Below, in pieces: positions 4,144 to 45,013 of a DNA stretch of 64,000 nucleotides (position 1 is the first letter of the stretch; the number at the start of each line of letters is the position of its first letter). The stretch spans positions 538-64,537 of the forward strand of contig CADASF010000014.1 of assembly GCA_902790465.1 (NCBI GenBank). Direction: 5' to 3'. The translations under genes were made by a program, and so were the position numbers. Origin of the DNA: an uncultured bacterium. Lineage in GTDB: Bacteria; Vulcanimicrobiota; CADAWZ01. The notes beneath the pieces were generated by a model. It ran no database searches. It saw nothing but the letters and a program-made list of their open reading frames with translations, and was not told the origin of the DNA.

Positions 4144-4289
4144 TTCAAAAATCCTCCATTCTCTCTTAGTCTTTTCTTCTTTTTGATCAAATCCAACTTA
4201 CCAACACCCCTAAATAAAATCGTTGTGATAGTTGAATTTTTGCCTATTTACAGCAATTTTCATAAATAGTGCAAATTTTAAAAAATAAG

Positions 4290-4400
4290 TAAATAAAAAT
4301 TTGCTATAAACTATCCAAAATATGCCTGTATACTACCACTTTGTCATTGCCTCTAAATAGAGGATGTTTAGGTTACGGAAATCAATTTTTGTTATTAATT
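4290..4400 (-). repeat. Composite small repeat, copy C (R1 module in inverse orientation, then a CCTCTAAATAGAGG palindrome, then the 'acggaaatcaatttttgtta' module)
   Basis: The reverse complement of 4293-4345 matches 10441-10530 and 11741-11830 over ~80 nt (gcaatgacaaagtggtagtatacaggcatattttggatagtttatagcaaatttttatttactt). 4370-4392 matches 27990-28012 and the inner repeats of the 44824-45013 element. Confidence 0.6.
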
Positions 4401-4475
4401 TTGCAATTACTTCCTCTTTATACCCCCAAAAAGTTGCGAAAATAGAAACCAAAAAACTTACCAAAGCACAAAAAT

Positions 4476-5102
4476 TTAAATTAAAATCTCATCAGGCTCA
4501 ATTCCAACCATTATAATTGGTACAGTTGGATTTGATCTCCCCTCTCGTATTACATTTGCAACTTCATTTTCAAACCACGCTACGCCTGTATCCATTTTTA
4601 AACACATTGCCCTTGTAGGAATTATTTCAATTCCTACATCTATATCATTACGCAAAAAGAAAAAAGTATGCTTTACATGTAGATCATAGGCAACACTAAA
4701 ATATTTGCCAAATTGAACTTCAACAGCAACACGGTCTTTTACAAAATCGACTTGATTATTTGTCCTATAAGCCTGAAATCCTTTACTTTCTATTATCCTT
4801 TTCTGCTCTTCTTTATCACGAATATTTGAAATTTCTCTCGCAAGTTGAATATCACCTGTAACATAATAATATGTCGTTACAGATTGCCAATTAAGTGGAA
4901 ATAATCGTTTTTCAAATTCTTTGTTTATTGCTTTTTGATCATAATTAACTCTTCCACTCGTGGGCTGTGCTTTGCTCAATTTTGTAAAATTATTGGCTTC
5001 TATACTATTAATAGCATTTACTATTTCATCCCATTGTTTTTTTCTATGGACAAGCATATACTCATAACCATTTAAATGACTATAAAGATTTGCTATTTTC
5101 AT
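4476..5102 (-). CDS. Type II restriction endonuclease, BglII/BstYI-like (tentative family)
   Basis: Its ATG overlaps the stop of the upstream methyltransferase by 2 nt (ATGA), which suggests translational coupling. Motifs VAVEVQFGKY... and PIIMVGIEPDE recall the BglII-family catalytic core; that is recalled similarity, not searched. Confidence 0.5.
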   Translation of the reverse strand: MKIANLYSHLNGYEYMLVHRKKQWDEIVNAINSIEANNFTKLSKAQPTSGRVNYDQKAINKEFEKRLFPLNWQSVTTYYYVTGDIQLAREISNIRDKEEQKRIIESKGFQAYRTNNQVDFVKDRVAVEVQFGKYFSVAYDLHVKHTFFFLRNDIDVGIEIIPTRAMCLKMDTGVAWFENEVANVIREGRSNPTVPIIMVGIEPDEILI

Positions 5103-6013
5103 TTATCTTCTCTCCATTCAAATGGTATCTGAGCAATTTTATCATTCGGACTTGGTGTCCAAATTTTTTTATATATCGGTCTTGTTATCAATGTATCATT
5201 TTTTAATTTTTCGATTCTTTCAAGACCAATATCTATATATTTTTTTTCTAACTCTGTTCCATAAGCTATGCGATTATTCTTAAGCGAAGCTATCAATGAA
5301 GAACCAACCCCAGCAAATGGATCATAGACAATATCATTTTCATTACTCAATGCAAGCACACAGCGTTCAACTAATTCAACAGGAAATTGACAGGGATGAT
5401 CAACTTTTTCTGGATGATTATTTTTTACATTTGGAATATCCCAAATAAGGGCATCCCAGTCATCAATCAATCTCTCTATATTTGCTTCCCATACATCCTC
5501 AGGATTTTTGCCTTTAGGATTTCCACTTATCTGTCCTTTTTTTTCACCTTTATAATATCTTTTACCAGGATATTTAGACGGTATTCTAACAGAATCCAAA
5601 TTAAAAGTATAATTATCTGTTTTTGAAAACCAAAGAATCGTCTCATATCTTCCACTAAATCTTTTCGAACAGTGAAGACCGTGTCCAAAATGCCATATTA
5701 TACGATTGCGAAGATGAAGCCCTAATTTTTTAAAATAAGGATAAAAATATATGTCAAGTGGATAAATTTCTCCATTATCCACAAAATTTCCAGTTTGCCA
5801 ACAGAGATGACCGTCATCTGATAAAATGCGTACAAATTCTGAAAGCATCGGCTCAAGAGTTCTTATATATTCATCTATATTTGTTTTTGTCTCATATTCT
5901 TTACCAATATTATAAGGAGGTGAAGTTATTATAAGTTTTACAGAATTAGAAGAAATCTCTTTGCTAAATTCGAGAGCATTTTTACATTCATATTTAAAGT
6001 CAAGAATTTCCAT
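5099..6013 (-). CDS. DNA methyltransferase, beta-class N4-cytosine or N6-adenine (SPPY motif IV before a C-terminal DPFAGVGSS motif I)
   Basis: Carries SPPYNIG and DPFAGVGSS motifs with D12 class N4/N6 methylase domain order; paired with the downstream REase. Confidence 0.85.
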   Translation of the reverse strand: MEILDFKYECKNALEFSKEISSNSVKLIITSPPYNIGKEYETKTNIDEYIRTLEPMLSEFVRILSDDGHLCWQTGNFVDNGEIYPLDIYFYPYFKKLGLHLRNRIIWHFGHGLHCSKRFSGRYETILWFSKTDNYTFNLDSVRIPSKYPGKRYYKGEKKGQISGNPKGKNPEDVWEANIERLIDDWDALIWDIPNVKNNHPEKVDHPCQFPVELVERCVLALSNENDIVYDPFAGVGSSLIASLKNNRIAYGTELEKKYIDIGLERIEKLKNDTLITRPIYKKIWTPSPNDKIAQIPFEWREDK

Positions 6014-10440: not shown

Positions 10441-10530
10441 TATTTATAAAGCTTCGCAATGATAAAGTGGCAGTGTACAGGCATATATTGGATAGTTTAT
10501 AGCAATTTTTTATTTACTTGTTTTAAAAAA
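10441..10530 (+). repeat. Composite small repeat, copy A (R1 module)
   Basis: cgcaatgataaagtggcagtgtacaggcatatattggatagtttatagcaattttttatttactt matches 11741-11830 and the reverse complement of 4293-4345. Confidence 0.6.
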
Positions 10531-11740: not shown

Positions 11741-11830
11741 TTATAGGGGGGGAGGTCATTACAATGGAGCTAAATACAGGCATATATTGGATAGTTTATA
11801 GCAAATTTTTATTCACTTATTTTTAATAAA
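11741..11830 (+). repeat. Composite small repeat, copy B (gaggtcatt module plus R1 module)
   Basis: gggggggaggtcattacaatggagctaaatacaggcatatattggatagtttatagcaaatttttattcacttattttt. The R1 core is identical to 10478-10510, and the gaggtcatt part matches the IR arm at 28073. Confidence 0.6.
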
Positions 11831-12779: not shown

Positions 12780-13592
12780 CTATACATCCCAAATTTTGAA
12801 AATATCTTTATATCTTTTTTCCGATAATTCCACATATTCAGGCATAATATCAATACCAATAAATTTTCTTTTCATCAATATTGCCTGTATGCCTGTAGTT
12901 GAACTTCCACAAAATGGATCGAGTATTAAATCTCCTTCTTTAGTAGATGCTTCTATAATTCTTTTCAAAACAGCCAAAGGCTTTTGAGCTGGATGTGAAC
13001 CTGATTTTTTCTCAGATTTTTTTGCAGATGGAATGACCCAAACAGACCTCATCTGTTTTCCTTCTTTTTTTATTGGATCATCATCCCAATTCTTAAATTT
13101 CATCTCTTTGTAATTGAAAGTGTAATTTTTTTTGTTGTCTTTCTTAGCCCAAATTATAGTTTCGTGGCTTGCTGTAAAACACTTACAAGAGAGATTTGGC
13201 GGTGCATTTGGTTTAAACCAAGCAATATCATTTATTATCTTAAATTTTTCAGATAAAAGAGCATAACCTGTTGAGTAAATAGAATGATATGTGCCACTTA
13301 TCCAAATTGTGCCATTTGGTTTTAGAACTCTTGCACAGGCTCTTATCCATTTTTTTGTAAATTTTAAATTTTCTTGTAAAGTAAGTGGTTTATCCCATTC
13401 ACCTTTGTCAACACTCTCCATTTTGCCACCTTTACAAGTAATTCCTCCACTTGAAAGATTATATGGAGGATCGGCAAAAATCATATCAACAGACTCTTTT
13501 GGGAGTTTTGACAAAATCTTTATTGAATCTCCCAAATATAATTTAAAATCTTTGTCTTCAAAAAAGGGTTTCATGGTTTTTCCGCCTTTCAA
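12780..13592 (-). CDS. Orphan DNA methyltransferase, beta-class N6-adenine/N4-cytosine (DPPY then DPFCGSSTTG)
   Basis: DPPYNL motif IV and C-terminal DPFCGSSTTG motif I. No restriction-endonuclease-like ORF is adjacent. Confidence 0.8.
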   Translation of the reverse strand: MKGGKTMKPFFEDKDFKLYLGDSIKILSKLPKESVDMIFADPPYNLSSGGITCKGGKMESVDKGEWDKPLTLQENLKFTKKWIRACARVLKPNGTIWISGTYHSIYSTGYALLSEKFKIINDIAWFKPNAPPNLSCKCFTASHETIIWAKKDNKKNYTFNYKEMKFKNWDDDPIKKEGKQMRSVWVIPSAKKSEKKSGSHPAQKPLAVLKRIIEASTKEGDLILDPFCGSSTTGIQAILMKRKFIGIDIMPEYVELSEKRYKDIFKIWDV

Positions 13593-16065: not shown

Positions 16066-18633
16066 TCACTCGTATCTAAGAGCCTCTATTGGATCGAGTT
16101 TTGAGGCCTGCCAAGCAGGATAGAATCCAAAGAATATTCCAACACCTACTGAAAACAAAAATGAAATTATTATTGCCTCAACTGAAATGATAGTGTTCAA
16201 ATCTTTAAAGAAATGTGGAACATACTGTGAAATAACTATGCCAAGGATAATTCCAATTACCCCTCCAGTTATGGATAATTGCATTGATTCAAATAAAAAT
16301 TGTTTTAAAATATCACTTCTTCTTGCACCAACAGACATTCTTATGCCAATTTCTTTAGTTCTTCCTGTTACAGAAACAAGCATTACATTCATAATTCCTA
16401 TTCCACCAACTGTAAGAGATATTAAAGCTATTGATAGCAAAAGCACTCTAAATAAATTTGTTGTCTCTTCACCTGCTTCTTGAATACTTATTTGAGTTTC
16501 TATTTCAAAATCATCTTTATCATCTTCTTGCAATTTATGCCTCTGTCTCAAAAACAATTTAATTTCCTCTACAGATTCTTCTAAATCTACATCATCAGCA
16601 ATAGAACAAACTAATAAAGATAAATATTTGTCTTTATTTAGACGAGAATGAGCTACAGTATATGGAATAAGGATACAATCATCATATGTTCCAAAAGATT
16701 GTATTTTAGTTTTTACGAGTGAATTTTTCTTATTTTTGTCATCGTTTTCTTTTGTTTCATTTTTATCGTCATCTTTTGTTTTATCCTCTTTTGTTACACG
16801 ATACATTGTTCCTTTTGGTTTTAGTATTCCAATAACTCTAAATGGAATATTTTTTATTCTTATAAATTGATCTATTGGATCGTCCTCTTTATTAAACAAT
16901 TCTTTGACAACTTCACTACCTAAGAGACACACTTGATTCCCATTATTTAAATCTTCTTCTGTAAAAAATTCTCCGTCAGCAATCTCCCAATTTGTAATTT
17001 TATAATAATTTTCTGAAACTCCATAAACATCTGACCTACAATTTTTATTTCCATATACTATTTGTAAATATTTTCTTATAACTGGTGAGGAATAAATTAT
17101 AAAAGAAAATTCATTTGCTATGGCATGACTATCTTCAATTTTCAATGTGTGAAAAACTCCATTTCTAACTCCATTAACCATTTTAATTTCTGGTCTAATA
17201 TTTATGAGATTTTTTCCCATCAATGAAATTGAATCTTGAATTGATTTAGAAACACCTTGACCAACACTGATCATCGTTATAACAGAAGCAACACCTATTA
17301 TAATTCCAATAATTGCCAAAAATTCTTTTATCTTGTCTGTATATATTGTTTTTAATAATAATTTCGCTATAACCCAAAAAGAAATTACTTTATGGGATTC
17401 CATATATGATTTTAAGGTTTTTATTAAAGATATTTGGCCATCTGATTCATTTCTAATAGCCTCAATGGGATCGAGCTTCGACGCCTGCCAAGCAGGATAG
17501 AATCCAAAGAATATTCCAATACCAGCAGAAAATAAAAACGAAATTATTATAGACTCTATTGAAATCACTGCTTTTAAATCTGAAAAACTTTGTGAAAGAT
17601 ATTGTGAGATTACAATTCCAATTACAGTTCCTATCAACCCACCAATTAATGACAATATCATTGATTCCAACAAAAATTGTTTTAATATATCAATTCTTCT
17701 CGCTCCAAGTGCCATTCTAATACCAATTTCTCGAATTCTTTCAGTAACAGAAACAAGCATTATATTCATAATTCCTATTCCACCTACTAAAAGAGATATA
17801 GAAGCAATAATTGATAAAAACAATGCCAATGTTTTTGTTGTTTCTGTCCGTTTATTTATAAACTCAATGGGTAAGAATAATCTAAAATCATCTTCTGCTT
17901 CTGCCTTTAAATAGGAATGTCGCTGTCTCAAAATTGATCTAACATCTTCCTTGATTTCTTCTATATTTTCATATGGATTAATAGAGCAATGTACAATATT
18001 ACGAGACACTTTGTTAATACGAGAAAAAAATGTAGTATATGGAATATATATACTCTTATCATCATCCATTCCTATTTTTTTAAATACTCCATTTACCCTA
18101 AATGGTATCCCTTTAATTCTTATAAATTTGCCTATTGGATATTCCTCGGGAAACAGTTTTTCACACATATAACTACTTAAAATACAAACTTGCTCACCAT
18201 TTTCTAAATCTTCTTCTGTAAAAAATTCTCCTTCAGAAAGTTCCCAATTTTTAATTTTACAATAATTTTCAGAAACTCCCGAAATATATGAACTACAATT
18301 TTCATTCTCATATATAACTTGAACCTCATCATATAATTCTGGTGAGGAATGAATTATGAAAGAAGATTCATTTTCTATAGCTTTACAATCTTCAAATGTC
18401 AATGGATTTCTTTTCCTAAATTCTTGTCCTACTCTTGGAACAATAAGAATAGTATTTTCACCAAAAACATTACAAATTCTATCTTTAATTGCCTTAGTTG
18501 CACCTTGACCAATACTCACAACTATTAGAACAGAAGCAATTCCTATTATAATTCCAAGCATTGTCAAAATACTTCTCAACTTGTTTGCATATATCGCTTT
18601 TAAAGCTATTTTTATCGTTGACAAAAGAGACAT
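16066..18633 (-). CDS. Tandem-fused double FtsX/MacB-type ABC permease (two complete permease units in one 855-aa polypeptide)
   Basis: Two repeats of the MacB-like architecture, each with MSLLSTIKIALKAI...LGIIIGIASV N-terminal TM, a periplasmic domain and a FYPAWQASKLDPIEA C-terminus. The second unit begins at ...WVIAKLLLKTIYTDKIKEFLAIIGIIIGVASV. Confidence 0.8.
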   Translation of the reverse strand: MSLLSTIKIALKAIYANKLRSILTMLGIIIGIASVLIVVSIGQGATKAIKDRICNVFGENTILIVPRVGQEFRKRNPLTFEDCKAIENESSFIIHSSPELYDEVQVIYENENCSSYISGVSENYCKIKNWELSEGEFFTEEDLENGEQVCILSSYMCEKLFPEEYPIGKFIRIKGIPFRVNGVFKKIGMDDDKSIYIPYTTFFSRINKVSRNIVHCSINPYENIEEIKEDVRSILRQRHSYLKAEAEDDFRLFLPIEFINKRTETTKTLALFLSIIASISLLVGGIGIMNIMLVSVTERIREIGIRMALGARRIDILKQFLLESMILSLIGGLIGTVIGIVISQYLSQSFSDLKAVISIESIIISFLFSAGIGIFFGFYPAWQASKLDPIEAIRNESDGQISLIKTLKSYMESHKVISFWVIAKLLLKTIYTDKIKEFLAIIGIIIGVASVITMISVGQGVSKSIQDSISLMGKNLINIRPEIKMVNGVRNGVFHTLKIEDSHAIANEFSFIIYSSPVIRKYLQIVYGNKNCRSDVYGVSENYYKITNWEIADGEFFTEEDLNNGNQVCLLGSEVVKELFNKEDDPIDQFIRIKNIPFRVIGILKPKGTMYRVTKEDKTKDDDKNETKENDDKNKKNSLVKTKIQSFGTYDDCILIPYTVAHSRLNKDKYLSLLVCSIADDVDLEESVEEIKLFLRQRHKLQEDDKDDFEIETQISIQEAGEETTNLFRVLLLSIALISLTVGGIGIMNVMLVSVTGRTKEIGIRMSVGARRSDILKQFLFESMQLSITGGVIGIILGIVISQYVPHFFKDLNTIISVEAIIISFLFSVGVGIFFGFYPAWQASKLDPIEALRYE

Positions 18634-18796
18634 AATTTATTCCTAATTTTATATAAAGCTATAATTTTTCATATCTCTTTATTATTTTTATATACCTTTT
18701 CCCCTGCAAAAATTAGATAGAAAAAATCATTTGCCTTTTGAGTTGTATATGGTATAAGAATTATGTTATGAAAATTATATATTTACAGCAATTTTC

Positions 18797-18846
18797 AAAA
18801 AAAAAGGGGTTGTAAAAAAAATACTTTTTTCACAGCCCCTTTTTTA
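18797..18846. terminator. Intrinsic terminator hairpin inside the efflux operon (between permease genes)
   Basis: GGGGTTGT...ACAGCCCC stem (one G-U pair) flanked by A and T runs on both sides. Confidence 0.45.
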
Positions 18847-18862
18847 TACCCATACACACATT

Positions 18863-20083
18863 TCACTCGTGGTTAAGTGCCTCTATTGGATTGAGTTTTG
18901 AGGCTTTGTATGCAGGATAAAATCCAAAAAAGATTCCAACACCTGCTGAAAATATAAATGAAATAACTATTGATTCTGTTGAAATAAATGTTTGTAAGTC
19001 TGGAACAAAATTAGGAATAGATTTTGAAAGTGAAATTCCAATTATAATTCCTATTATTCCTCCAATAATTGAAAGAATCATTGATTCAAGTAAAAACTGG
19101 TTTAAAATATCACTTCCTCTTGCTCCTAAAGACATTCTGATACCAATCTCTCTAATTCTTTCTGTAACAGAAACAAGCATTATATTCATAATTCCTATAC
19201 CACCGACCAAAAGAGATATTGAAGCAATGGCTAATAAAAATAATGTCAGCATTCTTGTTGTTTCTGTTCTTTTTTCTATCATATCTACTTGTGAATTTAT
19301 TTTAAAATCATCTTCGGCACTTTCTATTAAATGATGTCTCTGTCTCAAAAGTGTTGTAATTTCATCCATAGCTTCTTCTGTATATTTATCTGAAGTTATA
19401 GAACAATATATTGACCATAAAAATTTATTCTTATATAAACGAGCTTTAACAGTTGTATATGGCATTAATATAAAATTATCTTGATAATTAGCTTCTGCTG
19501 AACCTGAAGAATTTTTAGGTTTAAGAACACCAATAACTCTAAATGGAATATTTTTTACTCTTATATATTGGTCTATTGGGTCTTCGCCTTTAAATAATTC
19601 TTCTAAAACTGTATTACCTATTAAACAAACTTGATTGGCATTTTCAACATCTTCATCTGTAAAAAATTCACCTTCAGAAATTGACCAATTTCCGATTTTA
19701 TCATAGTCTGTTGAAACTCCATCAAAAATTGCATTCCAATTTTCATTTCCATATACAACTTGTGCATTTCCATTGATATTAGGAGAAGCATATTTTACAT
19801 AATTACACTCATTTTCTATGGAATAACAATCTTCTAAAGTCAATGTCTTTGCAATTCCTTGACGAACTCCATTAATTGTAACTGCCCTTGGTACAACAAT
19901 TAAAAGATTTGTTCCAAGTGCGGATATTTTATCTTCAATAGCTTTAGAAGCCCCTTGACCAATACTAACCAATGTAATAACAGAAGCAACACCAATTATA
20001 ATGCCAAGCATTGTCAAAAATGCTCTCAATTTGTTTGCATTTATCGCTTTTAAAGCTATTTTTATCGTTGAAAAAAGAGACAT
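18863..20083 (-). CDS. FtsX/MacB-type ABC transporter permease
   Basis: Paralogous to the neighbouring permeases: N-terminus MSLFSTIKIALKAINANKLRAFLTMLGIIIG and C-terminus FYPAYKASKLNPIEALNHE. Confidence 0.85.
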   Translation of the reverse strand: MSLFSTIKIALKAINANKLRAFLTMLGIIIGVASVITLVSIGQGASKAIEDKISALGTNLLIVVPRAVTINGVRQGIAKTLTLEDCYSIENECNYVKYASPNINGNAQVVYGNENWNAIFDGVSTDYDKIGNWSISEGEFFTDEDVENANQVCLIGNTVLEELFKGEDPIDQYIRVKNIPFRVIGVLKPKNSSGSAEANYQDNFILMPYTTVKARLYKNKFLWSIYCSITSDKYTEEAMDEITTLLRQRHHLIESAEDDFKINSQVDMIEKRTETTRMLTLFLLAIASISLLVGGIGIMNIMLVSVTERIREIGIRMSLGARGSDILNQFLLESMILSIIGGIIGIIIGISLSKSIPNFVPDLQTFISTESIVISFIFSAGVGIFFGFYPAYKASKLNPIEALNHE

Positions 20084-20220
20084 AGTTTATTTTTTTATCT
20101 GCATAATTTTTATTATGTTTTTATTATTTTTCTATATCTTTTCCCCTGCCAAAATATAAAATAAAAAAGAGACTGGAAAAATATTCCAATCTCCCTTTAC
20201 AATTACTACCCACAAAAATT

Positions 20221-21435
20221 TTACTCGTGTCTAAGTGCATCTATAGGATCGAGTTTTGAAGCTTGCCAAGCAGGATAGAATCCAAAGAAGATTCCAACAC
20301 CTGCAGAGAACAAAAATGAAATTATTATTGCCTCAACTGAAATTACAGTTTTTAAATCTGGAACAAAGTGCGAAATAGTAAGTGCAAGTCCCATTCCTAT
20401 TAAAATTCCTATTATTCCACCCATTATGGAAAGTGTCATTGATTCAAACAAAAACTGTTTTAAAACATCGCTTCCTCTCGCACCAAGTGCCATTCTGATA
20501 CCTATTTCTCTAATTCTTTCAGTTACGGAAACAAGCATTATGTTCATAATACCTATACCACCGACCAAAAGAGATATAAAAGCTATCGCAGACAAAAATA
20601 ATGTCAACATTCCCATTGTCTGTGCCATAGTCTCTTTTATATCAGCCTGTGACCCTATTGTAAAGTCATCTTCTGCATCATCTTTTAAATGGTGTCTCTG
20701 TCTCAAAAGTGTTGTAACTTCATCTACAGCTTGTTCTGTATATTCTTCTGCTGAAACAGAACATACGATAGATTGAATATATTTCATTCTACTTATACGA
20801 GAAAGGGCTGTTGTGTATGGAACCATTATGACATCATCTTGGTCTCCTCCCATTCCTTCACCTTTTGTCTGTAAAACCCCAACAACTCTAAATGGTACTT
20901 TTTGAACTCTTATAACTTGATCTATTGGATTTTCTCCATTGAACAAATTTTCAACAATAGTATTACCTATTACACAGACTTTAGCACTGCCTTTTACATC
21001 TTGTTCTGTAAAAAATTCACCTTCAGAAACAGGCCAATTTCTTATTTCATCATAATCTTGTGATACTCCATAGACAGTTGAACTCCAGTTTTGATTTCCA
21101 TAAACAACCTGCATTCCTCTTCTAACCATTGGGGAGGCATAAGTTATAAAAGAACATTCGCTTTCTATAGCTTTGCTATCATCAACAGTCAAAGTATGAA
21201 CAGTTGAAGTTTGTCTAACTCCTCCTGTTTTTAACATTGATGGAGATACTGTCAAAAGATTTGTTCCAAGTGAAGATATATTATCTTCAACTGATTTTGA
21301 AACTCCTTGACCAATGCTGACCATCGTTATAACAGATGCAACACCTATTATGATTCCAAGCATTGTCAAAAGAGCCCTCATTTTATTGGCATTTATTGCT
21401 TTTAAAGCAATTCTCATAGTTGCCCAAGGAGACAT
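20221..21435 (-). CDS. FtsX/MacB-type ABC transporter permease
   Basis: MSPWATMRIALKAINANKMRALLTMLGIIIG...FYPAWQASKLDPIDALRHE. Confidence 0.85.
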   Translation of the reverse strand: MSPWATMRIALKAINANKMRALLTMLGIIIGVASVITMVSIGQGVSKSVEDNISSLGTNLLTVSPSMLKTGGVRQTSTVHTLTVDDSKAIESECSFITYASPMVRRGMQVVYGNQNWSSTVYGVSQDYDEIRNWPVSEGEFFTEQDVKGSAKVCVIGNTIVENLFNGENPIDQVIRVQKVPFRVVGVLQTKGEGMGGDQDDVIMVPYTTALSRISRMKYIQSIVCSVSAEEYTEQAVDEVTTLLRQRHHLKDDAEDDFTIGSQADIKETMAQTMGMLTLFLSAIAFISLLVGGIGIMNIMLVSVTERIREIGIRMALGARGSDVLKQFLFESMTLSIMGGIIGILIGMGLALTISHFVPDLKTVISVEAIIISFLFSAGVGIFFGFYPAWQASKLDPIDALRHE

Positions 21436-25489: not shown

Positions 25490-26869
25490 CTAAATATCGA
25501 GCTCAATCATTTCTGGCTTTTTGCCTTTTTTACCCTTTTTAGTTGTTGTTTCCTCTACTGGCATTTCTTCAATTTCATCTATCTTGTTTTCATCATGTTT
25601 TTTTGCTTTTTGGACTGTCGGAATAGTATTTGTTATGCTTTCGATAACAAGTTCATTTATTTTTACAGGTGTAAATGTGATAAATGAACTCAACAATTTT
25701 GAAATATATGCAGAACAACGTTCAATTATGAAGAGTTCGATTGTGTCATCTATTGAATTGAGGGTTTCAATGAAGTTGAAACTTACATCTTCTGTGCTTG
25801 AATTTTCGATATATTTTTTGATGACCAATGGAATATTTTTTGTAGAGATCAAAAGTACATTGTCTATATTATATGATTCAACATATAATTTAATCTTGTA
25901 GATATCTTCTATTGTTACTTTGTTATCTGCAAGTACAAATAAGAATGACTGACCATTAATGATTGAGAACATATATGTTATATCATTATCTGATACCCAA
26001 AGTCTGACTTGGTCTGATTTGATACCTGCTTTTTCAAGTGCATGAATTATTCTTACTTGTAGCCAATATCCATGCTCAATAAATTTCTTTCCCGTCGAAC
26101 TACATGAAACAATTTCATCAATAGTTTCTTTTGAAAGTGGATTTCCACAGATAAAACATTTATTAGCACCTTGTGGAGTTTCTTCTAAAGCACTTTTTGA
26201 GGAAACTTTCAAAATTGGCTGTCCAGTTTTACTACAGAGAACAACAAAATCTTTTGTTATTACCTGTCTCTTTTCAAACATATCAACTATTGGAGCTAAT
26301 GAAGAAAGTTCATCTTTTGGAAATATACTTGTTATTGAAGCAGATGTAATATCCTTTATCTTCATCAAGAAATCTCTTGTTTTTTCATCTTCAAGTATTA
26401 TTGAAAGCTCATTTTCTTCTTCTGTTGGATTGCAAGTACATGATTGTTCATCAATTACATGCTTTATCTCTGAATCATATTCATTTGCAGTCCAAACAAC
26501 TTTTTTATCAAAATATTTATCTGCTAATTCAGATATTGTTTTGAAAAATGAATCAAAATCTTCTGTAACATTATTTCCAATGAAACCAATTTGTATACAT
26601 TTTTCATACAATTCAATTTTATAAAATAAAATGTCTTTATTTTTGTTTAGAACTATATCACCAAATATGCCTTCATCTTCTAATTTTTCAGATGTGATTT
26701 CATCCCACCATTTGTCATTTGTCTCTTCTGGAAGACCAAGCCTTTTACGATATTCTTTTCTTATTGAATAGAGTACAGGCTGATAATTAGCTGAAATTTC
26801 TCTTATAAAATTAAGAACAGCACTTAATTCCATGCTTTCAAGTTCTGCTTTTTTCAAGGATATTTTCAT
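25490..26869 (-). CDS. Hypothetical protein (459 aa) with an internal CxxC...CSS zinc-ribbon-like motif and a Lys-rich tail
   Basis: ORF; KCFICGNP...IVSCSS; C-terminal KKGKKGKK; no family recognised. Confidence 0.45.
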   Translation of the reverse strand: MKISLKKAELESMELSAVLNFIREISANYQPVLYSIRKEYRKRLGLPEETNDKWWDEITSEKLEDEGIFGDIVLNKNKDILFYKIELYEKCIQIGFIGNNVTEDFDSFFKTISELADKYFDKKVVWTANEYDSEIKHVIDEQSCTCNPTEEENELSIILEDEKTRDFLMKIKDITSASITSIFPKDELSSLAPIVDMFEKRQVITKDFVVLCSKTGQPILKVSSKSALEETPQGANKCFICGNPLSKETIDEIVSCSSTGKKFIEHGYWLQVRIIHALEKAGIKSDQVRLWVSDNDITYMFSIINGQSFLFVLADNKVTIEDIYKIKLYVESYNIDNVLLISTKNIPLVIKKYIENSSTEDVSFNFIETLNSIDDTIELFIIERCSAYISKLLSSFITFTPVKINELVIESITNTIPTVQKAKKHDENKIDEIEEMPVEETTTKKGKKGKKPEMIELDI

Positions 26870-27002
26870 GTTTTCACGCTTCCTTTTTTAATTCAGACTG
26901 TCCTTAAAAAAACAGCCTTTTTATAACCTTATTTTTTTTCTTTAAAAAAATATATTTTTCCTTTATTTATTTCTTATAAAATTATAGAGTTTTTTCAAAG
27001 CT

Positions 27003-27932
27003 CTAATCTTCAAGAATGTTTTCAGCAGGAATCTTCAAAATTTTGATAGCCGATTCTTTTATCTTATCTATTTTATTTGCATTTATAAGACAAGATATAG
27101 TCGTATGTGAATCTGTTGTCCTCATTATATCAACTTTTACAGAGTCAAATGCTTCAAAAATCTTGTCCATTATACCTGGAACACCTTTTATTCCAACTCC
27201 TAAAAACATCACTTTTGCACATTCATCATCTCTTGAATATTTAAATCCTAAATCAGAAATAATTTTCTCAATTTTATCAGCTGAAGAATTTTCAGAGATA
27301 AAATGAAGTTCATCATAACAAATATTGATCATATCAAGACTTATATCAGCAGACTTAATATTTTCAAGAAGATTTAAAATATCCAAATTTGAATCTTCCT
27401 CAAAAAACACTGAAAATGAAGAACGATTATTTACTATTTCAACAGAATTTAATTTAGTTTCTAAATCTATATTAAAATCCAACTTTCCTTTTTTCTCTTT
27501 AGTTAAAACATTTTCAGGTACAGCACATGGAATCAATATCAAAAGATTATTTTCTGAAAGTAATTCCTCGATCTCTCCCCTATTTGCAAAAACCTCAACA
27601 GTATCTGTTTTTCCTGTAAATTTACCTTCATGATAAAAACCCTGACAAAAAACAGGTTTAAATTTTGCTTTTTCAAGAATTGAACAAAGAGAAACACTCT
27701 TTGCAATTTGTCGAGAATAAGAAAGCATTTTTACATCTTTACCATAAAGATAATTTTTATCAACACCAATTTTTCTCATTACAGAAAACATCTGTGATGT
27801 GGGTATCTCTTCAGATAAAATAAATATGACTTTTTCGCCTTTTGTCAAAAGTGGTAAAAGTTCAAAGGCAGCCTGATCCTCATTTCCAGCCATATCTCTT
27901 TCATTAATTACATAAGCATACATCTTTTTCAC
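27003..27932 (-). CDS. ACT-domain protein resembling an aspartokinase regulatory region fused to a degenerate kinase-like N-terminus
   Basis: C-terminal tandem ACT-like segments (AKVMFLGVGIKGVPGIMDKIFEAF...). The GRGGSD catalytic loop is absent. Confidence 0.4.
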   Translation of the reverse strand: MKKMYAYVINERDMAGNEDQAAFELLPLLTKGEKVIFILSEEIPTSQMFSVMRKIGVDKNYLYGKDVKMLSYSRQIAKSVSLCSILEKAKFKPVFCQGFYHEGKFTGKTDTVEVFANRGEIEELLSENNLLILIPCAVPENVLTKEKKGKLDFNIDLETKLNSVEIVNNRSSFSVFFEEDSNLDILNLLENIKSADISLDMINICYDELHFISENSSADKIEKIISDLGFKYSRDDECAKVMFLGVGIKGVPGIMDKIFEAFDSVKVDIMRTTDSHTTISCLINANKIDKIKESAIKILKIPAENILED

Positions 27933-27989
27933 ACCATTTTTATATAAATTTTATAATATTATTTCAAACTAAAAATAAAAAATCCCCTT

Positions 27990-28050
27990 TTATGTCACGG
28001 AAATCAATTTTTGTTAGTTCAAATAATTTTCAAAAATTGATTTTCATACC
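27990..28050. repeat. 'acggaaatcaatttttgtta' module plus its own inverted partner (caaaaattgattttc), forming a local hairpin
   Basis: 27991-28012 matches 4370-4392 and the inner repeats at 44855/44952. 28031-28046 is its reverse complement. Confidence 0.55.
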
Positions 28051-28072
28051 CAAACTGGCTCTATTTAAAAGC

Positions 28073-28107
28073 GAGGTCATTGCGAGGCGTAGCCGTGGCA
28101 ATCTCAA
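28073..28107. repeat. Left arm of a long-range inverted repeat (GAGGTCATTGCGAGG-n5-CCGTGGCAATCTCAA)
   Basis: Its reverse complement is found at 28479-28519 (15+15 nt identical blocks with a variable centre). The arms are GC-rich within an AT-rich context. Confidence 0.7.
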
Positions 28108-28478
28108 GCCTGTAAATTTATAATATTATTTCAAATTTCCAAAACAAATTTATTTTGTTTTTGATTTTGCAAATCAATATGTAACCCCGCCAAAATATAA
28201 ATATAGTAGATGACTTTATTAATGCCTGTAAATAAAGCTAAAATTTGAAATAATGTTATTATCTACTTAAAAATTGAGTTGATCGCTTCTATTTATCCGA
28301 TTTCTACCTGATCTGCTGAATAAATTTAGATGATATTAATTCACCCATAAAAGGAAAATTGTTGTAAAATAAAAAATAACACAATAGATAAAATAAATAA
28401 ATTAAGGCTGTGAAAAAAGTATTTTTTTATATAATTTTCGTAAATTAACTCATTGTGTTAGTTAATAAAAAAAAGTGG

Positions 28479-28519
28479 TTGAGATTGCCACGGTCGCACA
28501 GCTCCCTCGCAATGACCTC
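28479..28519. repeat. Right arm of the inverted repeat, 37 nt upstream of the lipoprotein start codon
   Basis: TTGAGATTGCCACGG-n11-CCTCGCAATGACCTC is the reverse complement of 28073-28107. Confidence 0.7.
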
Positions 28520-28556
28520 TATTCTATTTACTTTTTTCACAGCGTTAGGAGACATA

Positions 28557-30183
28557 ATGACGAAGAAATTTTTAATTTTTACACTGTGCCTTTTTATCCT
28601 CGGCACATTTATTTCAGCATGTGGTGGAGGTGGCAAAACAACACCGCCAAACTCTCCATTTTTCCCTATACCTACTCCAACACCTGCAACATATCCTCTT
28701 GAACTTTCAAAGACAGAATTCACTGTAAATATTGGAGAAACAGACAATATCACTGTTACACTAAATGGTGAAGACATCACACAAACTGCTACTTATACTG
28801 TTGACCAAGAAGCAATCGCTACTGTTGAAGCTGGACTTATAACAGGAATTTCTGTAGGAATTGCGACAGTTACTGTACATGCAGAAAATGCGGAAGCTGA
28901 TAAAACATTTACTGTTAATGTCATCGATCCAACTTTACCAAGTCTTGAAGTAAATCCAACAGAAGTTGATTTGATTATTGGTGAAGAAGGGGCTGTAACT
29001 ATTACACTTGAAGGTAAAGATGTAACAGAAGATGTTACTTATACTGTTGATGACAAATCTATTGCAACTGTTGAAAAAGGAAAAATTACTGGAAATAATG
29101 AAGGAACTGCAAATGTTACAGTTTCACTCACAGGAGCAAACAGTGCAATTTTCAAAGTAAATGTAAAATACCTCGAAGTTACATTAAATGACGAGGTACT
29201 CGAGCAGTTAGGATATCAAAAAGTTAAAAATGGAAATTATTATGATATAAAAAAAATAGAAGATGGTACAATTGTAACAAATCTTGAAATACCTGCAACT
29301 TTTCAAGATAATGAGAACAAAAAATGCAAAATAATAGCCTTTACAAAGTGTTACTATTCCTGACAGTGTTACACACATTGAAAATCAGGCTTTTGAATAT
29401 TGCTATTCATTAAAAAGTATTACTATTCCTAACAGTGTTAAACACATTGGAAATGAGGCTTTTAAGTCTTGCACTTCATTAGAAAGTGTTACTATTGGAA
29501 GTGGTCTTACAGCTATTGGACAAATTTTTTATAATTGTTCCAATTTAAAAAATGTTACAATATCTGACAATGTAACACAATTGACGACTAAAAATGGAAC
29601 AAAAATAGATGTTCCTAATGGAATTTCTACAAACAATAATGTAACTTTCATAGATGTTAAAACAACATCAACTATTACAAGTGTTACTATTCCAGATGGA
29701 GTTACAGAAATTCCTGACAAGGCTTTTTGGAACTATCATTCGAACTATAATTCATTGGCAACGATAAATATTCCAAACAGTGTTACAACTATTGGTCAAT
29801 CTGCTATTAAAAATTGTAAATCATTAAAAAGTATTACTATTCCTGACTCTGTTACAACCATTGAAAATGCGGCTTTTTCTGATTGTACTTCATTAGAAAG
29901 TATTACTATTCCAAACGGTGTTACAACTATTGGAAATCAGGCTTTTGAATGTTGCACTTCATTGACAAGTGTTACTTTTGAAAAGAATTCAAATTTGGAA
30001 AGTATTGGATATCAGGCTTTTAGTTATTGCGGTTATTCTAACGACACAGCAAATTTGAACCTCGAGGTTCCAAGCACAGTTACAACTATTGGAAATGCGG
30101 CTTTTGATCATATCAATTTTAAATATAGTGGTACTGCAGAAGATACAAAGGGCAACAACTGGGGCGGAAATAAAATAGAATAA
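28557..30183 (+). pseudogene. Surface lipoprotein with two Big_2 Ig-like domains and a BspA-type leucine-rich repeat (LRR_5) region, disrupted by a frameshift near 29335-29365 (track ORFs 28455..29363 and 29581..30183)
   Basis: Lipobox MTKKFLIFTLCLFILGTFISACGG with an AGGAGA RBS. Big_2 repeats TYTVDQEAIATVEAGLITGISVGIATVTV and TYTVDDKSIATVEKGKITGNNEGTANVTV. Frame 0 stops at 29363, while frame +1 is open from 29338 and continues the LRR units (IPDSVTHIENQAFEYCYSLKSITIPNSVKHIGNEAFKSCTSLESVTIG...) into the 29581 ORF. Confidence 0.6.
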
Positions 30184-30200
30184 CAGAGTAAAAGCGAGTA

Positions 30201-30243
30201 AAACAACTCCACTTATCAAATCTGATAAGTGGAGTTGTTTTAT
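30201..30243. terminator. Strong Rho-independent terminator
   Basis: 17-bp stem AACAACTCCACTTATCA / TGATAAGTGGAGTTGTT followed by TTTTAT. Confidence 0.7.
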
Positions 30244-30367
30244 GTTATATTACAAAATCAAAAATTTTCCTTTTATTTTTCTATCTTCTATTTTTTTGTA
30301 AAATGTGCTATAATAATAAAAATATAAATATGCTCCTTCTATCAAAGAAGCCAAAAGGGAGGAAAAA

Positions 30368-44823: not shown

Positions 44824-45013
44824 GCAACTTTTGTACGGTACAAATAGGAGATGTGGAAATCAATTTTTTTAATTCATAATAATTTTCAAAAATACTATTT
44901 TTTTATTTTGTATCGTATTTTTGAAAATTATTTAACTGCAAAATTAATAACAAAAATTGATTTCCTTGAGGGGAAAAAATAAAAATTGTTATCTTGTACC
45001 GTACAAAAGTTGC
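44824..45013. mobile_element. MITE-like 190-bp element with nested terminal inverted repeats, inserted in the ftsI-murE intergenic spacer
   Basis: Perfect 20-nt outer IRs gcaacttttgtacggtacaa (44824-44843) and ttgtaccgtacaaaagttgc (44994-45013). Inner IRs ggaaatcaattttt (44855-44868) and aaaaattgatttcc (44952-44965) belong to the same 'acggaaatcaatttttgtta' module seen at 4370 and 27991. Confidence 0.55.

Follow-up and report, generated by a model that had tools for sequence, protein, structure and literature searches.

What are two GC-rich inverted repeats doing in front of a surface-protein gene of an uncultured bacterium? The question arises in a 64,000-nt stretch of the Vulcanimicrobiota contig CADASF010000014.1 (assembly GCA_902790465.1, positions 538 to 64,537 of the forward strand; hereafter "the window"), where two inverted arms bracket an AT-rich interval immediately upstream of a lipoprotein gene. 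A sequence-only reading of the window had offered two answers, an invertible promoter switch or a miniature inverted-repeat transposable element (MITE). The likely answer, in our view, is that each arm is an orphan copy of a widespread Ssn-type hairpin repeat, the two having been placed independently within a rearranged, strain-variable surface-protein locus. Comparison contigs and loci are designated by L-numbers (L001, L139, L170, etc.).

The inverted arms

The arms and the gene that follows them lie as follows (SRM, Ssn-related motif; NTS, the corresponding repeat of Neisseria):

28073-28107, + strand: left arm, SRM/NTS-like hairpin repeat with the sequence GAGGTCATTGCGAGG-cgtag-CCGTGGCAATCTCAA
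28479-28519, - strand: right arm, SRM/NTS-like hairpin repeat, reverse complement GAGGTCATTGCGAGG-gagctgtgcga-CCGTGGCAATCTCAA
28557-30183, + strand: surface lipoprotein gene with signal and Cys, two Big_2 domains and BspA-type LRR_5 repeats (Pfam)

Direct reading of 28073-28107 and 28479-28519 bears out the earlier description of inverted copies that share two exact 15-nt blocks, with 37 nt between the end of the right arm and the ATG of the lipoprotein gene (28557). The interval between the arms is AT-rich, as had been proposed (22% G+C, vs 57-59% in the arms and 30% in the window), but measures 371 nt rather than 365 nt. The centers between the 15-nt blocks are unequal, being 5 nt long in the left arm vs 11 nt in the right. 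Both arms follow the plan GTC-ATTGC...GCAAT-C: the left arm has a GTC head, an outer stem ATTGC/GCAAT, an inner stem GGC-GTA-GCC and a C directly 3' of the palindrome, and the inner stem of the right arm is GGGAGC/GCGACC with a tandem G.A pair. The exact arm 15-mers have no further occurrence in the window, and folds of single-arm DNA showed no unusual stability. The Logan contig L138 terminates within the left arm, at window position 28102, perhaps because coverage was low or because the hairpin broke the assembly graph.

A hairpin repeat distributed across bacterial phyla

The motif to which both arms conform consists of GTCATTGCGAGG, a covarying, self-complementary inner stem with a variable core, and then G-W-R-GCAATCTC. 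Scanning with the pattern GTCATTGCGAGG-N(3-20)-GCAATCTC, one genome per species, recovered it in at least 120 stretches of genome contigs from well over a dozen phyla (among the matches listed were Chloroflexota, Bacteroidota, Patescibacteria, Oscillospiraceae, Elusimicrobiota, Fibrobacter, Proteobacteria, Omnitrophota, Planctomycetota and others), and viral contigs carry it as well (at least 120 loci). An alignment of 112 distinct copies plus the two window arms (114 in all) served as the source of a covariance model, R1. The outer stem ATTGC/GCAAT is invariant in this alignment, having been fixed beforehand by the search pattern; it is followed by a small internal loop and by an inner stem that either covaries or contains tandem G.A pairs. 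Compensatory changes in the inner stem amounted to 83 double-change cells vs 28.8 in shuffled alignments; none of 500 shuffles attained the covariation seen, and the pairing was lost when partner columns were slid as a control.

Applied to the 64 kb, R1 recovered the right arm at 40.3 bits (E = 2e-9) and the left arm at 37.0 bits (E = 1.8e-8), the next match reaching only E = 0.35. There are two intact motif copies in the window, and possible AT-decayed remnants at 4342, 10450 and 11752. Both arms belong to this pan-bacterial hairpin repeat; they are not a recombination site specific to the locus. In 100 foreign loci the model identified 218 copies, for which plus-then-minus (tail-to-tail) was the dominant neighbor geometry (70 adjacent pairs, 63 of them with spacers of 0-56 nt). 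The pair in the window has the same tail-to-tail polarity, but a spacer of 371 nt.

Databases offered no name for this family: Rfam returned nothing at gathering threshold in the window or in eight canonical loci, an E-value scan gave only noise, and literature matched by sequence or peptide strings comprised only unrelated primers. Around 142 motif copies, clustering of the open reading frames (ORFs) up to 1 kb away showed recurrence only of spurious ORFs reading through the motif. Such read-through ORFs (L011-L130) yield the recurring peptides SLRG..EAIS, CHCEERSDEAIS and ..PRND.., and are a likely source of false "hypothetical proteins" in annotations.

Association with GIY-YIG nuclease genes

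The only other long-spacer pair, at L029, has a spacer of 395 nt that encloses a 98-aa GIY-YIG gene (Pfam PF01541), and it was examination of this single pair that revealed the link between motif and nuclease. At L085, a 92-aa GIY-YIG gene lies 6 nt from a hairpin doublet. The protein has at least 7970 homologues, and in two unrelated contexts, gyrB-X-gyrA and racemase-X-AMP-ligase, the R1 motif stood on both sides of the GIY-YIG gene in every locus examined. There, the forward motif ends ∼22 nt before the ATG, the inverted motif lies 8-36 nt past the stop, and the spacer between motifs is 323-351 nt. Motif-flanked GIY-YIG genes were found at L029, L085, L142/145/152/153 and L154-159, and GIY-YIG is the only protein partner that recurs near the motif. 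Arrays of up to nine hairpins, arranged as alternating doublets with ∼145-nt spacing (660-1180 in L142/L145, 1500-1830 in L153), occupy the gyrB-ssn or ssn-gyrA gaps of rumen Oscillospiraceae-like contigs.

This arrangement is the NTS-ssnA-NTS architecture reported for Neisseria, and more generally for SRM, by Chenal et al. (Nat Commun 2025; PMC11893778). In that work NTS is given as CGTCATTCCCGCG-MAV-GCGGGAATCYRG; SsnA is a 94-aa single-domain GIY-YIG protein that binds the repeat solely as single-stranded DNA (ssDNA) and cuts a few bases upstream; mutagenesis with N. meningitidis SsnA found the three bases 5' of the palindrome and the C right after it to be critical for binding and cutting; NTS copies cluster near membrane and host-interaction genes; and SsnA lowers transformation by NTS-bearing DNA ∼5-fold (PMC11893778). 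The window arms carry GTC and C at the SsnA-critical positions and, like SRM, are semi-palindromes of 20-50 nt able to form a hairpin. Further likenesses to the NTS-dRS3 and SsnA system (PMC11893778) are an oriented hairpin of 30-40 nt with a GTCATT head, a semi-palindrome and then AATC-Y; the flanking of ∼95-aa single-domain GIY-YIG genes on both sides; the intergenic orphan state of most copies; and the placement of copies next to a surface or host-interaction gene within a region that varies. The present locus differs in its stem, TTGCGAGG...GCAA, in holding two copies in 64 kb vs hundreds per genome, and in having one copy inside a leader hairpin.

Several observations weigh against assigning the arms to this system. 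The 64-kb window contains no GIY-YIG gene. The published SRM pattern, HGTCWYN(0-2)YYVSBRHN(0-5)WNVSBRGN(0-2)RNCYNB, recognizes NTS, yet it picks out neither arm, none of the 114 family copies and nothing else in the window; ahead of GTC it demands A, C or T, and both arms have a G there. Of 120 random genome loci with the motif only 2 had a GIY-YIG gene nearby, and of 120 such viral loci none did, so that most motif copies are orphans and the gene-motif link rests on a few clades. The partner proteins match PF01541 and, weakly, the UPF0213 protein BH0048 in the PDB, and are at most putative members of CDD family cd10448. Finally, the 371-nt spacing is near the size of a motif-gene-motif unit, which we treat as a probable coincidence. 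Given that the pattern misses all 114 copies although GTC and C are kept, the family would be a stem-sequence subtype that escapes the pattern, and its reading as a sequence subtype of SRM (NTS in Neisseria) is well supported.

Placing the arms in the hairpin-nuclease framework of 2025 has a consequence beyond this locus. The published pattern misses a very common stem variant (ATTGCGAGG...GCAAT) that keeps the gene-bracketing architecture, and surveys based on that pattern therefore probably undercount such systems.

A composite interval in a rearranged locus

Around the arms, the intergenic DNA between the ACT gene and the lipoprotein gene, and that beyond the latter, resolves into the following parts:

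27968-27994: junction duplication, left copy (27 nt); ancestral intergenic DNA stops here on the side of the ACT gene
27999-28045: small palindromic MITE-like repeat, GGAAATCAATTTTTG...CAAAAATTGATTTTC (inverted repeat 28001-28013 / 28031-28043)
28059-28070, + strand: leader CTCTATTTAAAA of dispersed AT-rich repeats, a pattern also present at 4351 and 11735
28108-28349: lineage-specific AT-rich DNA, single-copy in the window and without counterpart in L170, L171, L176 and L177
28350-28402, + strand: native upstream region of the lipoprotein gene, probable promoter, kept in arm-less relatives
28403-28547, + strand: leader hairpin, with 19-nt stem arms at 28403-28421 and 28529-28547 (95% complementary)
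30204-30243, + strand: terminator-like hairpin, caactccacttatca...tgataagtggagttg followed by tttt, read from the sequence
30250-30276: junction duplication, right copy (27 nt); ancestral DNA resumes on the CN_hydrolase side

Comparison with relatives shows how these parts differ in origin. The ACT and CN_hydrolase genes are directly divergent in the sister species L140 (ACT protein 86% identical, genes 160 nt apart) and in the closer relatives L170-L180 (ACT protein >90% identical, genes 153 nt apart), and no R1 motif was found in L140 or L170-L180. In L170 and L171 the ortholog of the lipoprotein gene is found on the opposite flank of ACT, downstream of it, and window 28543-30203 aligns by BLAST with the relatives' lipoprotein gene module. 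Positions 2932-2958 of L170 align with both 27994-27968 and 30276-30250 of the window, in agreement with a three-way alignment that includes L140; the core of this duplication, AAAAATYYCCTTTTAT, occurs at these two sites only. Window 28352-28402 aligns with L171 ∼5897-5846, directly 5' of the orthologous lipoprotein gene. Because relatives without arms keep 28352-28402 as the gene's own upstream DNA, the 371-nt interval is composite and not one unit. Within its lineage-specific portion, 28113-28135 is a 24-nt direct copy of the ACT promoter region (27945-27968) and 28123-28180 forms a 61-nt imperfect palindrome. In L139, a 97%-identical strain, the left arm and the DNA to ∼28290 are shared with the window, after which the sequences diverge and a core-deleted remnant replaces the right arm; the right arm is likewise absent from L170-L180.

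The gap between ACT and CN_hydrolase (27003-30367 in the window) varies in content, being empty in L140 and L170-L180, holding a tetratricopeptide repeat (TPR) gene in L141 and the lipoprotein cassette in the window. In L176, an AAA-ATPase/PDDEXK_9 gene lies between ACT and the lipoprotein gene. An inverted 15-mer pair, TTTTTGATTTTGYAA (28158 and 30250), was considered as the ends of a larger element and rejected, its right copy being ancestral intergenic DNA.

These comparisons bear directly on the suggestion that the arms are the terminal inverted repeats of a single ∼450-bp MITE drawn from the genome's AT-rich dispersed repeat family. That family is real: a repeat of ∼78 nt occurs at 4276-4353 (- strand), 10456-10530 and 11752-11829 (82-90% identical). 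The leader CTCTATTTA.AG that precedes the left arm also precedes the AT-rich repeats at 4351 and 11735, CTCTATT is found after the right arm too, and the unit is without coding capacity. The recurrence of "gaggtcatt" reported earlier also holds, within this small dispersed repeat, but at 11752 and not 11748; the 11752 copy starts GAGGTCATTACAATGGAGC, differs from the right arm solely by G-to-A or G-to-T, and may be a decayed hairpin copy, a plausible AT-decayed arm. A unitary MITE is nevertheless unlikely, since the interior (28108-28478) is present just once in the window, 28352-28402 is orthologous to upstream DNA in arm-less relatives, the left arm occurs alone in L139, and no clean target-site duplication is visible. 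What survives of the MITE proposal is that both arms belong to a dispersed repeat that is probably mobile, and that the left arm has its leader in common with the AT-rich repeats; the ∼450-bp unit itself is no MITE. The separate MITE-like palindromic repeat, with ends GGAAATCAATTTTTG / CAAAAATTGATTTCC, has related copies at 4367-4425 and 44854-44969, of which the 44.9-kb copy is a complete element of ∼110 bp.

The right arm and the leader of the lipoprotein gene

The stem of the leader hairpin abuts the Shine-Dalgarno sequence, and its 107-nt loop (∼28422-28528) contains the right arm; the RNA fold of 28396-28570 has a predicted energy of -40.9 kcal/mol (z -3.7). At the equivalent place, before AGGAGA..ATG, L171 has the uninterrupted hairpin AACGGAGTTAATTTTTGAAAAATTAACTCCGTT. 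The left half of the stem is tied by GCTGTGAAAAAAGTATTTTTTTA, a 23-nt exact match of 28406-28428 to 18815-18837 (- strand), to a terminator-like hairpin that follows the gene at 18863-20083.

Such a leader invites an explanation purely at the level of RNA, in which the arms pair with each other in a long 5' untranslated region, or translation is controlled by the right arm alone, serving as a leader or attenuator structure. The 19-bp stem ending at the Shine-Dalgarno sequence would suit this, as would the hairpins directly 5' of the Shine-Dalgarno sequence in L171 and the fold of 28050-28545 with the arms paired (z -5.8), though any inverted repeat is expected to fold well. There is no known promoter 5' of the left arm, Rfam has no match, members of the motif family take either orientation and form doublets whatever the genes around them, and the characterized partner enzyme acts on ssDNA rather than RNA. 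We regard a purely RNA-level element as quite unlikely.

Unlikely readings: a decayed nuclease gene or an invertible promoter

The association elsewhere with GIY-YIG genes raises the question of whether the 371 nt are what remains of such a gene, eroded by AT pressure between motifs that once bracketed it. The spacer falls within the 323-395 nt of intact units, the polarity is the same, and 45 nt inside the left arm a faint resemblance can be seen (IYFVFDFANQ vs YYVYILTNK). Against this, a hidden Markov model of the family scored at most 0.9 bits on six frames, the tblastn match had E = 13, the arms are intact while the interior would need complete decay, and some of the interior demonstrably represents upstream DNA of the lipoprotein gene itself. 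Among at least 30 contigs, none had the same arms around an intact GIY-YIG ORF. A decayed motif-ssn-motif element is accordingly very unlikely.

The orientation of the interval was followed in 18 distinct metagenome contigs of the species, recovered via exact-protein look-ups and spanning 27801-28700. All 18 were collinear with the window and in one orientation, with intergenic single-nucleotide polymorphisms at three positions only. No tyrosine or serine recombinase and no transposase was present among the ORFs of the window; the earlier proposal had called for a search of the genome for invertase genes. A consensus scan gave 5 promoter-like sites vs 4.7 expected, the conserved block 28350-28402 lying inside the segment. 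Joint Genome Institute (JGI) metagenomes contained neither the inverted nor the native junction (0 each) and are uninformative, as the species is not in that collection. A site-specific recombinase flipping 28108-28478 to turn the lipoprotein gene on and off is thus highly improbable, even though inverted repeats bracket a segment that holds the conserved upstream region, 37 nt separate the right arm from the ATG of a gene for a variable surface protein, and the partial copies of the ACT promoter region inside the segment, both direct and inverted, could be scars of past rearrangement: none of the 18 independent contigs is inverted, a recombinase is absent from the 64 kb, promoter-like sites are not in excess, the arm centers are unequal and come from a pan-bacterial family usually found as short-spacer doublets, and L139 has one arm alone.

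GC-rich inverted repeats 5' of a surface gene are not automatically a phase switch, and a tempting false positive is removed.

The lipoprotein gene and its alleles

Pfam matches confirm the Big_2 and LRR surface domains that the sequence-only reading had assigned to the gene. It had also called the gene frameshifted: the window allele is indeed disrupted, but by deletions of 29 nt and 42 nt in the leucine-rich repeat (LRR) region rather than by a simple frameshift, and a 565-aa allele is intact elsewhere (L002, L003, L007, L010). Other deletions occur in L001, L164 and L166, and assemblies differ in their deletions, of 29-50 nt, within LRR repeats of 69-nt periodicity. The truncated product encoded in the window has no database record. 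Either real, possibly repeat-mediated heterogeneity in the population or assembler collapse could account for them. The idea of a phase-variable cargo is not borne out, as the disruption consists of tens-of-nt deletions in the LRR repeats and not of changes in a slippery tract.

A possible history of the locus

If the arms are two separately placed Ssn-type hairpins, the history of the locus can be sketched. Elsewhere, the motif brackets a ∼95-aa GIY-YIG nuclease gene and would also spread as gene-less tail-to-tail doublets. In the lineage of this rumen bacterium, a rearrangement would have moved the lipoprotein gene from downstream of ACT to between ACT and CN_hydrolase. One motif copy now lies in new junction DNA, and the other within the loop of the leader hairpin that belongs to the gene. 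In a single-stranded state, during replication, uptake or repair, each arm would fold and, provided that the genome encodes an Ssn-type enzyme, could be nicked by it; nicking of the arms would bias recombination at the variable surface-protein locus. We infer this folding, nicking and recombination bias for the present organism. At the level of RNA, the right arm would form part of a structured 5' leader if transcription starts within 28350-28402, and it is probably carried in the leader RNA of the lipoprotein gene.

A more ambitious version is possible but doubtful. The ATTGCGAGG-type hairpin could be the recognition element of a very large, uncharacterized Ssn-like branch of GIY-YIG proteins (the at least 7970 homologues above), forming a motif-gene-motif mobile element that sheds non-autonomous doublets across phyla and viral contigs. 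The two orphans in the window, captured around the lipoprotein promoter and leader, might then gate recombination or cassette exchange, or tune the leader; such gating would resemble the ssDNA restriction of NTS in Neisseria.

Comparison with other repeat systems

REP/REPIN sequences, mobilized by RAYT (Y1 HUH) transposases, resemble the present family: the hairpins are short, GC-rich and extragenic and keep a conserved head, they pair up as inverted doublets across short spacers, and an enzyme gene bracketed by the repeats is the presumed source. However, the partner here is a GIY-YIG nuclease and no RAYT-like family recurs near the 142 motif copies, and REPs are species-specific whereas the present motif is conserved across phyla. 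The invertible promoters of Bacteroides and Clostridioides difficile (fimS-like) also have inverted repeats flanking a segment of a few hundred bp before a surface-protein gene; the arms described here differ in the single orientation seen across 18 assemblies, the lack of a nearby invertase, and their membership in a generic hairpin family with unequal centers.

The minimal mobile elements of Neisseria are variable gene cassettes that lie between conserved genes and are bordered by dRS3 or Correia repeats. The conserved ACT/CN_hydrolase pair with its strain-variable content and hairpin repeats at the border resembles them; in contrast, the present cassette seems to have changed place inside its own locus, with a 27-nt duplication left behind. 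A hairpin-bordered, strain-rearranged surface-lipoprotein locus that echoes Neisseria is a natural place to ask whether Ssn-type nucleases shape recombination elsewhere.

Other features of the window

Cumulative GC skew reaches its minimum at ∼26000-30000, and the coding strand changes from mostly minus to mostly plus at the intergenic region. A replication origin near 28 kb was considered and rejected despite the skew and strand switch, as a DnaA-box cluster is absent and TTTTTCACA is not enriched. No tRNA genes were found in the window. Its gene content (SCIFF, DUF881, DUF1290, a dcw cluster and TolC/MacAB) might point to a low-GC rumen Firmicute. A BglII-like restriction endonuclease adjoins an N6/N4 DNA methylase at 4476-6013, and a second methylase lies at 12780-13592. 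At 16066-21435, four tandem paralogous segments (period ∼1.4 kb, 60-80% identical) extend over three MacB/FtsX-type permease ORFs, two of which are spanned by 16066-18633; these permease ORFs adjoin an ABC ATPase and HlyD-like and TolC-like proteins.

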